Source: a virus (Duplodnaviria; Heunggongvirae; Uroviricota; Caudoviricetes). Taken from it: a stretch of DNA of 64,000 bases. Shown one piece after another: positions 24,001 to 27,000 of the stretch (positions are counted from its first letter, which is position 1; the number at the start of each line of letters is the position of its first letter). A program made the position numbers. The DNA is taken from IMG/VR virus record IMGVR_UViG_2939521961_000006; one strand, given 5' to 3'.

Positions 24001-27000
24001 AGTAACAGATGGCAAAAATCCAGTATCTGCAGGGCACGCATGATGCCCGGGCCGGGGATATCCGTGATGTGGCACAGCCGTGTGCGGAGGTGCTGGTTCG
24101 CCTGGGGAAGGCGGAGTACATCACAGCGCGACGTCCGGCAGGTCAGAAAAAGAAACGTGATGCGGAGCATGGCGAATGTGGAACCTTTTGCGGCGAACCC
24201 GAAAAAACCAGAAATCAGGACGTGACGTAAGAGAAGTGGGCTGGCGGTCCCTGTTTCAGGCGGTGGCTGAGCCTTTTGCCGGTGCCTGGCAGCAGGGTGT
24301 GAAAGCCGATCCGGAAACCGTTTTGTCCTTTCACGCGGTGTTTTCATGCATTTCGCTGATATCCCAGGATATCGCCAAAATGCGGCTTCGCCTGATGCAG
24401 ACTGATGTACAGGGAATACGCCGGGAAAAGCGGCAGGGAGATACTGCCCGTCTCTGTCGTCGTCCTAATGCGCAGCAGAATCGCATCCAGTTTTTTGAAC
24501 TGTGGCTGAATTCCAAATTGCGTCACGGCAATACGGTGGTGCTGAAAATCCGCAACCCCCGGGGGCAGATCAAAGAACTGCGTATTCTGGACTGGAACCG
24601 GGTTGAACCTCTGGTGGCGGATGACGGCGACGTGTTCTACCGCATCACGCCGGACCGGAACTGTGGGATCACAGAGTCGGTGACGGTGCCTGCCCGGGAG
24701 GTGATCCACGACCGTTTTAACTGTTTTTTTCATCCGCTTGTGGGGCTGCCGCCGGTGTATGCCGCAGGACTGGCCGCCATGCAGGGGCATCATATTCAGG
24801 CAAATTCGACGTATTTTTTCAGAAATGGCGGGCGACCATCAGGCGTGATTGAGGTCCCCGGCAGTATTACGGAAGAAAACGCGAAAAAACTGAAGGGGAA
24901 CTGGGACAGCGGATATACGGGCGAAAATGCCGGGAAGACGGCCATACTGAGCAACGGGGCAAAATACAGCCCCACGACGTTTTCACCGGTGGATGCGCAG
25001 ACGGTGGAACAACTGAAAATGACGGCTGAAATTGTCTGTTCGGTGTTCCGTGTCCCGGCCTACAAGATTGGCGTTGGCCACCCGCCTTCCAGTGACAACG
25101 TGGAGGCGCTGGAGCAGCAGTATTATTCCCAGTGTCTGCAGACGCTGATTGAGTCCATTGAGCTGTTACTGGATGAGGCGCTGGAAACGGGGGAAAACGA
25201 GAGCACGGAGTTTGACGTCACCACGCTGCTGAGAATGGACAGCGAACGGCGCATGAAAACACTGGGTGAATCAGTGAAAAATACGCTTCTCACGCCCAAT
25301 GAGGCCCGTAAACGTGAGAACCTGCCGCCCCTTGCCGGCGGTGATGCACTGTATCTTCAGCAGCAGAACTACAGTCTGGAGGCGCTGTCCCGTCGTGATG
25401 CCCGTGAGGACCCGTTCGCGTCGGCCGGGAAAACAGTTTCAGCACAACTGCCTGACGGCGCATCTGACGGTAATAAGGCAATCAGTGAAACAGAGCATGA
25501 TGCAGTGAAAGCGATGTTCAGGGGGATACTGAGAAAATGACGGAACGGGAACTGTCCATTATTCGTGCACTGGGCGAAGAATTCTCCACGGTGCTGGCGG
25601 ATTTACAGCGCACATTTGAGGGGAAGATGGCCGCGCAGGCACAAGCGTTTGAAGAGAAACTGGCTTCCCTGTCGGCGGTATTACAGAAGCATGTGACGGT
25701 GGATGAGGTACATCCGGTTCTGCAGGCGATGGTGGATGACGCTGTGGGGACCATTCCGGTACCGCGTGATGGTCGTGATTATGATCCGGATGTACTGCAG
25801 CAGGCGGTGAATGATGCGGTTGCGAATATTCCGGTACCGGCGGACGGCAAAAGTATCACCCCCGATGATGTGCGTCCGATGCTTGAGCAGATGGTGAAAG
25901 AGGCTGTAAGCCATATCCCTGCTCCGCGTGACGGTCGTGATTATGATCCGGAAGTACTGAAGCAGGCGGTGAATGATGCGGTTGCGAATATTCCGGTACC
26001 GGCGGACGGCAAAAGTATCACCCCCGATGATGTGCGTCCGATGCTTGAGCAGATGGTGAAAGAGGCTGTAAGCCATATCCCTGCTCCGCGTGACGGTCGT
26101 GATTATGATCCGGAAGTACTGAAGCAGGCGGTGAATGATGCGGTTGCGAATATTCCGGTACCGGCGGACGGCAAAAGTATCACCCCCGATGATGTGCGTC
26201 CGATGCTTGAGCAGATGGTGAAAGAGGCCGTAAGCCATATCCCTGCTCCGCGTGATGGTCGTGATTACGATCCGGAAGTACTGAAGCAGGCGGTTCTGGA
26301 GGCGGTGAATGCCCTTCCGGCTCCGCAGGACGGGCGTGATGCCACGGCACTGGAAGTGCTCCCCGCTATTGACGATCAAAAATCCTTTCCCCGGGGCACG
26401 TATGCCACACACCTGGGTGGACTCTGGCGGGCGTATGAAAAAACGCACGGGATGCGGGGATGGGAATGCCTGGTTGACGGGGTGGCGGATATCGACGTCA
26501 GCATGACGGATGAGCGGTTGTTCTCTGTGGTGATCCGGCAGAGCAGTGGCCAGTGTACGGAAAAAACATTTTCCCTGCCGGTGATGCTCTACCGCGGTGT
26601 GTTCAGAGCCGGTGAAACCTACCACCCCGGCGATACGGTGACGTGGGGGGGCTCGCTGTGGCACTGCAACAGTATGACCGGTGATAAACCCGGAGAAGCT
26701 CATTCATCAGGCTGGACCCTGGCTGCAAAACGTGGACGGGATGCAGGAGGCGGAAAATGACGGCATTACTGACACTGGAAGAGATCAAGGCACATCTGCG
26801 TGTTGACCATGACGCGGATGATGACATGCTGATGGACAAGGTTCGTCAGGCTACCGCCGTGCTGCTGGCCTACATTCAGGGCAGCCGGGATAAAGTGATT
26901 CGTGAGGACGGTGAGCTGATCCCGGGCGAGGCATTAACCCGGATGAAGGGGGCTGCCATGCGACTGACCGGGATGCTGTACCGGAATCCGGATCTTGCTG

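Follow-up and report, generated by a model that had tools for sequence, protein, structure and literature searches.

A copy-number-variable two-module repeat and a one-base split/fused dimorphism in a portal-adjacent, fiber-like protein of lambdoid prophages

The stretch of DNA analyzed here, hereafter the window, is the 64,000-nt IMG/VR record IMGVR_UViG_2939521961_000006 (Caudoviricetes), which by its sequence is an Sp10-like lambdoid siphovirus prophage of enterohemorrhagic Escherichia coli (EHEC) whose late region shares ~97% identity with prophage Sp10 of E. coli O157:H7 Sakai. Its late genes run in the order small and large terminase, protease-capsid fusion, a small open reading frame (ORF), portal, X, gp6-like connector, head-closure, gp10-like and gp17-like genes, and continue with a tail tube gene that includes an Ig domain, followed by those for the tail assembly chaperone, the tape measure, J and a tail fiber of collagen-like type. 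The subject of this report is the gene called X, which encodes a protein of 407 amino acids (aa) and carries an in-frame 162-bp tandem array; the counterparts of the portal and X in Sp10 are ECs1974 (454 aa) and ECs1975 (407 aa). A preliminary description of the window had assigned the repeat to a virion-module gene, and correctly so; X lies within the head module between the portal and connector genes.

Tandem Repeats Finder reported the array with a period of 162, 3.3 copies, 98% matches and 0% indels. Its score of 1024 puts it well ahead of every other tandem repeat of the window, and even the runner-up (score 213) is this array again, taken at a 75-bp sub-period. This is the repeat that had been placed at 25771-26300, seen in another register, and it does consist of three full and one partial 162-bp units in frame with the 407-aa ORF (Table 1). 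Copies 2 and 3, which had been thought identical at the DNA level, turned out to be near-identical, one synonymous nucleotide (GCT/GCC) apart; copies 1 and 2 differ by 3 nt, amounting to one synonymous change, D>E and Q>K, and copy 4 agrees over ~47 nt and diverges afterwards. A 54-aa unit contains two modules that are related to each other, one of 25 aa (IPxPRDGRDYDPxVLxQAVNDAVAN) and one of 29 aa (IPVPADGKSITPDDVRPMLEQMVKEAVSH); this accounts for the weaker periodicity of 75 bp. The general plan of a module in the window's X is 'IPxPxDG(K/R)(D/S)' followed by a helix.

Table 1. Features of the portal-X region of the window (positions 5' to 3'; pLDDT, predicted local distance difference test)
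Feature	Coordinates	Strand	Basis or remark
Prohead protease-major capsid protein fusion gene	21943..23964	+	Pfam Peptidase_S78 and Phage_capsid
HK97-family portal gene, 454 aa	24176..25540	+	Pfam PF04860, E=2.3e-79
G5 tract in last portal codons	25521..25525	+	Junction comparison: window vs WGPS6, 2851, YYZ-2008
ATGA overlap of portal stop and X start, translational coupling	25537..25540	+	
Gene X, 407 aa, portal-adjacent fiber-like protein	25537..26760	+	Position and length equivalent of ECs1975
N-terminal 50-residue alpha-helix, aa 3-52, proposed attachment/coiled-coil end	25543..25692	+	AlphaFold2, pLDDT 89-95
Degenerate helix segment before the array, aa 53-72	25693..25752	+	Helix 55-71 in AlphaFold2 model
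162-bp in-frame tandem array	25762..26294	+	Tandem Repeats Finder; encodes six complete 'PxPxDG loop + helix' modules and the first part of a seventh
Array units	25762-25923, 25924-26085, 26086-26247; partial unit 26248-26294	+	Fixed register
Last two modules, aa 235-268	26239..26340	+	Partial fourth unit (first ~19 residues in the 3' end of the array) and diverged terminal module
C-terminal beta-sandwich subdomain, aa 289-355	26401..26601	+	
CBM5/12-like (chitin-binding-domain-like) beta-module, aa 356-400	26602..26736	+	
gp6-like head-tail connector gene	26757..27083	+	Pfam PF05135; ATGA overlap with X stop codon at 26757-26760

Homologs of X were found in 1,247 of 5,426 complete E. coli genomes, which have a median of 4 such places each and a maximum of 29. 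Phage records with a homolog number 97, most of them of Stx1a, Stx2c and Stx2a phages. In related phages X is 245, 299, 353, 405/407, 461 or 569 aa long, always in 54-aa steps, and the comparison thereby supports the earlier suggestion that the repeat varies in copy number. Direct inspection gave 2 modules for the 245-aa form of Lys8385Vzw, 6 for the 353-aa form of Stx1a_NIID112183, 8 for the 407-aa form of the window, E2865 and Sp10, and 10 for the 461-aa form of Stx2c_JNE102208 and BP-4795 (ORF59). An independent sample, the E. coli-type loci of IMG/VR, contained the same series (245 aa in 1 locus, 299 in 4, 353 in 14, 405/407 in 24, 461 in 3 and 569 in 2). The X of Stx1a_NIID112183 is shorter than the window allele by exactly one unit and shows no other difference, its flanks being identical, and in Lys8385Vzw, the shortest allele, the degenerate helix segment (the equivalent of aa 53-72) joins the last array module directly. 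With a unit divisible by 3, near-identical units and alleles that differ by whole units, the array is an in-frame variable-number tandem repeat. It resembles the in-frame length polymorphisms of surface and structural proteins in its multiple-of-three unit, high identity, whole-unit allelic series and concerted evolution, but differs from the typical ones in that its unit is long (162 bp), holds two structural modules and alters the length of a shaft, with no on/off switch.

Because the divergence of units within an array (2.7 nt per 162 nt in the window, 6.0 in phage Stx2a_WGPS6) lies below that between the two arrays (mean 16.1, minimum 11), although the unique flanks differ by only ~6 per 162, the units of each allele are homogenized and evolve in concert by repeated unequal exchange; 11 of the differences are fixed, every window unit differing there from every WGPS6 unit. 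The Serratia marcescens homolog P0241 (54% identity) has its own, independent near-perfect array of a 54-aa unit. The recent expansion proposed at the outset fares well in this light, as the units differ by only 1-4 nt and are homogenized within alleles, and as the NIID112183 allele is one unit shorter.

Could the length of X measure out the head? The head of phage 2851 is said to be elongated (prolate). Elongated (prolate) heads have been described for PAJU2-like virions (PMC3974807) and for the Stx1 prototype H19-B (PMC8065619), and the idea of a ruler of head length or capacity arises because such heads are reported for phages with the X head module (PAJU2-like and 2851). We rejected it, since X length and phage genome length are uncorrelated (Spearman -0.06, p=0.73, n=33).

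It might also be asked whether the 3.3-copy array of the window is an assembly artifact, collapsed or expanded relative to the true genome. The array exceeds short-read length, EHEC genomes hold a median of 4 related X copies, and a run of N lies inside the X array of Escherichia phage vB_EcoS-569R3 (ON470597; about 1990-2030 of the locus), on account of which its portal-X is annotated as two 'portal protein B' fragments. Hundreds of X database entries are 'partial' contig-end fragments from ~2-kb contigs, and in 5 of 53 untruncated E. coli-type IMG/VR loci the X ORF is too short or lacks the usual N-terminus; these oddities lend indirect support to the earlier remark that such repeats are assembly-prone. 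For the window itself, however, we give an artifact next to no credence: the 1,224-nt X gene recurs at ≥99% identity in 160 complete-genome records, the X of Sakai Sp10 has the same length, and the 54-aa allelic series is seen again in independent collections. On these records, the 3.3-copy allele is genuine in many complete genomes. In multi-copy Stx/lambdoid prophages, the array and the G tract described below are polymorphic markers and a likely source of contig breaks. The tail tube protein of vB_EcoS-569R3, incidentally, is labeled 'fibritin (wac)'.

A second polymorphism lies at the junction of the portal gene with X. The window's portal gene ends in ATG TTC AGG GGG ATA CTG AGA AAA TGA and contains a run of five G (G5) 12 nt before the X start codon. 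With G5 the portal and X are separate, as in the window, and with six G (G6) they are fused in frame: in Stx2a_WGPS6, phage 2851 and YYZ-2008 the portal and X form one ORF of 859-861 aa, for which the G6 tract is the only cause. As a purine run 11 nt upstream of the X start, the G5 tract may, to judge from its position, act like a Shine-Dalgarno sequence. Relatives read AGAGGATT at this position, and no G tract is present in Salmonella FSL SP-016, PAJU2 or the distant IMG/VR loci. The two tracts were counted with both the window flank and the WGPS6 flank, since a flanking single-nucleotide polymorphism (SNP) is linked to the tract, and the counts are of complete E. coli genome records with at least one perfect junction match, not of all ~2,500 junction places. 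With the window flank, G5 (split) occurred in 341 records and G6 (fused) in 7; with the WGPS6 flank, G5 occurred in 29 and G6 in 747. Because each tract is tightly linked to its flanking SNP, G5 and G6 look like two stable haplotypes between which switches are rare.

The exact 859-aa fused protein is present on 806 contigs, and fused ORFs are intact with X parts of 353 to 569 aa. There is, moreover, a second, independent lineage of portal-X fusion (P0379); its three variants, each of 1,237 aa, were found on four contigs, the longest of 119 kb, and have a quite different repeat, of the LPEPEPLPDI type. The split, two-gene form is nonetheless the ancestral one, since in Salmonella FSL SP-016, in PAJU2 and in all the more distant IMG/VR loci with the portal included, portal and X are separate genes that overlap by ATGA. 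One might suppose that a programmed switch at the G tract or at the A-rich junction, by ribosomal frameshifting or by phase variation, supplies both free and portal-fused X, as both tracts are common (341 + 29 versus 747 + 7 records) and the A_AAA_UGA at the portal stop could permit -1 slippage into the X frame. We hold this to be very unlikely: the tie of each tract to a flanking SNP speaks for stable haplotypes and not for frequent slippage, relatives have no G tract and do not keep the A_AAA context, and runs of five or six G are short for contingency loci. A programmed ribosomal frameshift joining the portal and X was rejected for want of a conserved slippery site, E. coli having GAAAAUGA where relatives have CAAAUGA, UAAAUGA or UCAAUGA.

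The dimorphism has left its mark on the annotation of these prophages. In E. coli E2865 (NZ_AP018808; locus L001, 4640-7224, equivalent to window 24176-26760) PGAP calls the split portal and X a single 'phage portal protein, frameshifted' pseudogene, and this label probably affects a large share of the ~370 G5 genome records. Phage 2851, in which the fused form is present, is reported by Strauch et al. (2004 and 2008) to be viable and to lysogenize and lyse K-12 strains. Sp10 carries the split form at the window's X length. It was scored as morphogenetically intact and was packaged and transferred to K-12 (PMC2669165), and Sp6, Sp9 and Sp12, which share the alternative head-gene organization of Sp10, were scored 'D' (defective) for the portal (PMC2669165, Table 1). 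Our guess that this 'D' score stands for the split allele failed, as Sp10 is split and yet scored '+'. In sum, thousands of E. coli entries misname X 'phage portal protein' and the ancestral split form is flagged as a pseudogene, which inflates the counts of pseudogenes and of 'defective prophages' in EHEC.

The misnaming deserves closer consideration. The exact X protein of the window occurs on 146 contigs as 'phage portal protein', and PHROGs files X under 'portal protein' families. The view implied by the GenBank, RefSeq and PHROGs names, namely that X is an HK97-family portal (PF04860/TIGR01537), was rejected: X alone has no portal match in Pfam or NCBIfam, a complete 454-aa portal lies directly upstream, the portal profile covers only residues 45-388 of the 859-aa fused protein, and X aligns with positions 455-859 of PHROG 2271, the non-portal half. 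The portal profile stays with the upstream gene and with the non-X half of the fusion, and the name is a misnomer that derives from the fused allele. Named family members outside E. coli are all 'hypothetical protein'. The earlier statement that X belongs to no recognized family therefore holds in that nothing reaches threshold in Pfam or NCBIfam, but not entirely, given the PHROGs families, the 'phage portal protein' names and PF28083, a precomputed annotation on some X homologs that is absent from the Pfam copy searched. Sequence matches of X in the PDB are designed helical-repeat proteins, which we discarded because they reflect helix-loop periodicity only. A stray misannotation is apparent in P0418 (WP_087673277.1), a 626-aa member of a fused portal-X cluster that bears the NCBI name 'plasmid partitioning protein ParA, partial'.

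An exhaustive search returned 5,557 representative clusters (50% identity) at E≤1e-3, of which 647 reached E≤1e-30. Family lengths run from 123 to 1,237 aa (about 214-1,237 without short fragments) and module numbers from 0 to 18 or more, on a common plan of a long N-terminal helix, a variable array of ~27-aa modules, in each of which a PxPxDG(K/R)(S/D) loop precedes a helix of 13-17 residues, and a C-terminal beta domain that closes with a CBM5/12-like module. Conservation is highest in this last domain, where one proline is invariant and some glycine, aspartate, tyrosine and tryptophan residues are nearly so. Of 149 representatives of the family, 70 have runs of four or more G-X-Y triplets, either in the loops or in a tail beyond the CBM-like module. 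X directly follows a PF04860 portal in E. coli, Salmonella, Pseudomonas, those 16 IMG/VR loci in which the portal is included, and three relatives that share 35-41% identity, and the ATGA overlap of the portal with X recurs in Salmonella FSL SP-016, Pseudomonas PAJU2 and all of those 16 distant loci. In the literature searched we found no study of ECs1975-like proteins. Two papers were set aside, the one on AH14a (PMC4936722) because its head module is a different one, of MuF type, and the one on phage Ab31 (PMC3974807) because its structural genes are those of phage AF and not of PAJU2.

In distant members, the genes that follow X resemble a cassette for protein or sugar modification (L090 4472-10475; L091 5294-8186; L004, which is PAJU2, 6712-8655). 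It includes sub-threshold MptE-like (DUF115/Maf-type) matches (E=7.5e-6 and 2e-4), a hexapeptide acetyltransferase, methyltransferases, radical-SAM/SPASM and BNR sialidase-like genes, and one PAJU2 gene is annotated 'alpha-2,3-sialyltransferase'. Such a cassette may glycosylate a virion protein, perhaps X itself, whose modules have a conserved DGKS.T motif; no genes of this type were found in the window.

Structure prediction, which had been proposed for the repeat unit and the C-terminal domain, was run on full-length X with AlphaFold2 and modeled the C-terminal domain with confidence (pLDDT 93.6). The repeat region (pLDDT 43-65) appears at low confidence as helices of 13-17 residues split by 12-residue loops, low values being what would be expected of a chain that folds only as an oligomer. 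As a rough estimate from this model, each 54-aa unit would add at least ~45 Å of helix (13 + 17 residues x 1.5 Å), more if the loops are extended, so that the natural alleles would span a several-fold range of shaft length. In a heptad test of the N-terminal helix, the best register put 8 of 15 a/d positions on hydrophobic residues, which gives no clear register. The structural neighbors of X are tail fibers, tailspikes, collagen-repeat proteins and chitin-binding modules, those found by Foldseek in a viral structure library being collagen-repeat proteins. The beta-sandwich subdomain (aa 289-355) had no close match among solved structures. The CBM5/12-like module holds most of the nearly invariant residues of the family (Y362, G365, D366, G372, W375, W393, L395, K398 and G400) and the invariant P385.

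Among known systems, X most resembles T4 fibritin in architecture, SPP1 gp7/MuF in gene position and CBM5/12 in its last module; by sequence it is a member of none of them, and the CBM5/12 fold is the only one of the three to be recovered. T4 fibritin (Wac) is an elongated protein of helical segments and short loops with a small C-terminal beta domain, its gene lies near neck and head-completion genes, and an in-frame deletion in its shaft is tolerated. X is alike in its segmented helices and loops, C-terminal beta domain, head-completion neighbors and tolerance of shaft length, but it has a ~130-aa beta-sandwich plus CBM5/12-like module in place of the 27-residue foldon of fibritin, its loops are of the PxPxDG or collagen-like type, and it is coupled to, and sometimes fused with, the portal; no fibritin family was among its Pfam matches. 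In SPP1, gp7 binds to the portal within the head and is present in low copy. X shares with gp7/MuF (PF04233) a gene directly downstream of the portal gene, but departs from it in its collagen-like loops, its all-beta C-terminus and its HK97-type head module with a protease-capsid fusion, and no Phage_Mu_F (PF04233) match was present among its Pfam matches at E≤0.1. The MuF family is modular, and the C-terminal parts of its members vary. Its toxin-bearing members have been described (PMC5576092).

As for CBM5/12, the predicted C-terminal module has the three-dimensional fold, and PF02839 scores 18.3 bits over aa 357-379 (E=0.0024), below its gathering cut-off of 26.2 bits. Unlike the chitin-binding modules of Serratia ChiB, Streptomyces ChiC and Bacillus ChiA1, X combines a sub-threshold Pfam score with the lack of an enzyme domain, and its glycan binding is putative; in phage fibers, a module of this type can be purely structural. 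Relatives of X resemble the collagen-like fiber and decoration proteins of phages (lambdoid side tail fibers, SPP1 gp12) in their G-X-Y runs, and the tail fiber of the window (39823-41151) itself has Pfam Collagen repeats. The X of the window differs from collagen-like fibers (PF01391) in that its loops are only PxPxDG(K/R)(S/D), with no run of three or more G-X-Y triplets, and in that it lies in the head module and not in the tail-fiber module; G-X-Y runs are accordingly a property of the family and not of this member. The P22 portal barrel reaches from the crown into the interior of the head. Where portal and X are fused, the 50-residue helix continues the portal C-terminus and, by analogy, would reach inward likewise, although X differs from that barrel in having been a separate gene ancestrally and in continuing with repeats and a beta domain instead of a simple helical tube.

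Taken together, these features lead us to favor, tentatively and at a little less than an even chance, the reading that X is a low-copy, fibrous minor virion protein tethered to the portal at the portal vertex, with the repeats as a tolerant spacer. The anatomy of the repeats, their polymorphism and homogenization, the modular plan of the family, its strict adjacency to the portal and the G5/G6 dimorphism are observed; what we infer is that X is a trimer and part of the virion, along with its stoichiometry, its place in the particle and its function. Unequal recombination or replication slippage between near-identical units would add or remove 54 aa (two modules), which would alter the length of the shaft and keep the reading frame and both terminal domains intact, and repeated exchange would keep the units of one allele alike. 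The N-terminus of X would sit beside the C-terminus of the portal, and the C-terminal domain would serve as a trimerization nucleus and/or binding module. In view of the collagen-like G-X-Y runs of many relatives, the family is most likely a homotrimeric fiber. Portal and adaptor are present in 12 copies each per virion, and as X is translationally coupled between the two, it is more readily seen as a low-copy component of the vertex than as a protein that decorates the whole capsid. That fusion to the portal C-terminus arose twice independently suggests that X has its N-terminus at work beside that part of the portal. In known portal structures (SPP1, P22, T4, HK97) the C-terminus forms a crown facing the head interior, on which ground a location inside the head is, by analogy, the leading sub-hypothesis.

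Several points weigh against the portal-tethered spacer and its internal placement. The window's X lacks a G-X-Y run and its N-terminal helix lacks a clear heptad register, so that the trimer is argued from relatives. An architecture of collagen-like, beta-sandwich and CBM5/12 elements is typical of external phage fibers, and we know of no precedent for it among internal head proteins. Fusions to the portal are rare (only P0379 among the 148 non-E. coli representatives listed), and since a single indel would turn any ATGA overlap into a fusion, they could be accidents that the phage tolerates. The G6 alleles keep the X start codon and the purine run, and free X could still be made from them. 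In polylysogenic EHEC, with a median of 4 X copies per genome, complementation in trans could make good a defective fused portal, as documented for other head defects (PMC2669165). Finally, the literature searched held no proteomic, electron microscopy (EM) or genetic study of any member of the family.

Some of these same points speak for a fiber on the outside, which we consider possible though not probable: X would be an external neck or head fiber, comparable with T4 fibritin whiskers, lactococcal neck-passage structures or phi29 head fibers, anchored by its N-terminus near the head-tail junction, with a CBM5/12-like tip that binds a surface glycan reversibly and repeats that set its reach, and the working X would be made from its own start codon, the fusions being tolerated accidents. 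The structural neighbors, the G-X-Y runs of 70 of 149 relatives, the position of X directly upstream of head-completion and adaptor genes, the rarity of fusions outside E. coli and the start codon and upstream purine run kept in G6 alleles would all suit such a fiber, and the weak Maf/MptE-like, acetyltransferase and methyltransferase genes that adjoin X in distant relatives would fit a surface-exposed, modified protein. Yet no part of the protein is better conserved in the family, from E. coli to Pseudomonas and further afield, than the supposed tip, unlike host-specific receptor-binding tips, and the fused allele, which is intact, abundant and found in phage 2851, would set all X chains at the portal's inner side if the canonical topology holds. 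The most ambitious form of the internal placement, in which X is a fiber or core bound at the crown of the portal, or else is ejected together with the DNA, with G5/G6 toggling between free and bound X and the repeat set at ~2 to 14 modules, seems to us improbable. An equally doubtful proposal makes X an assembly-only factor, either a portal chaperone or a scaffold-like core, that would recruit or position the portal while the procapsid is assembled and that the prohead protease removes or degrades and that mature virions lack. Its tight coupling to the portal gene, a head module that has no separate scaffold gene and relies on the protease-capsid fusion, fused alleles that would carry X into the procapsid where the protease acts, and a repeat region tolerant of very large length changes are all in keeping with this; the well-folded, conserved 130-residue beta domain and the collagen-like segments are unlike known scaffolding proteins, no protease site was identified in X, and its length does not follow genome size, which argues against a simple size determinant.

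Should the most ambitious form of the internal placement be true, X would represent a new and very widespread portal-associated class whose collagen-like/CBM-like architecture has not previously been seen inside capsids, and the locus would be contingency-like for the phage particle, holding two heritable adjustments of the virion in one place. Being portal-adjacent, with more than 5,500 clusters at 50% identity and a confidently predicted C-terminal fold, the family is a tractable target for virion proteomics and cryo-EM, for which the alleles found in nature, with 2 to 14 modules and with X either free or portal-fused, provide a ready-made collection of mutants. In-frame repeat-length polymorphism in phage structural proteins is already known, and the X sequence itself is in public databases; what appears undescribed in the literature searched is a huge portal-adjacent, fiber-like family with a homogenized two-module repeat, a one-base split/fused dimorphism and the inverted annotation that goes with it.

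Turning to the neighboring genes, the protease-capsid fusion is 673 aa long by our ORF tool (start 21943, overlapping the large terminase gene) versus 645 aa in public records. It joins Peptidase_S78 (aa 76-180) and an HK97-fold capsid domain (aa 414-663) in one polypeptide through a linker of ~230 aa, which presumably acts as the scaffold. PAJU2, the IMG/VR loci and L089 also have this protease-capsid fusion upstream of portal-X, and it characterizes this type of head module.

Three further features were noted elsewhere in the window. Directly before the TAG of the tail assembly chaperone gene (ORFs 29016-29390 and 29414-29695), an in-frame, canonical A_AAA_AAG slippery heptamer at 29381-29390 is the -1 frameshift site of lambda G/GT type that would be expected there. 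A second, weaker in-frame tandem repeat (40775-40901, 54-bp period, 2.4 copies, 78% identity) lies inside the tail fiber ORF and encodes the collagen-like G-X-Y triplets of the side tail fiber (Pfam Collagen, E=1.8e-18). Lastly, four iteron-like repeats of ~19-20 bp (CATCCCTCAAAACGAGGGA) at 1781-1858, within an ORF (1434-2372) that matches Phage_rep_O (E=1.1e-35), represent the usual lambdoid replication origin within the O gene.

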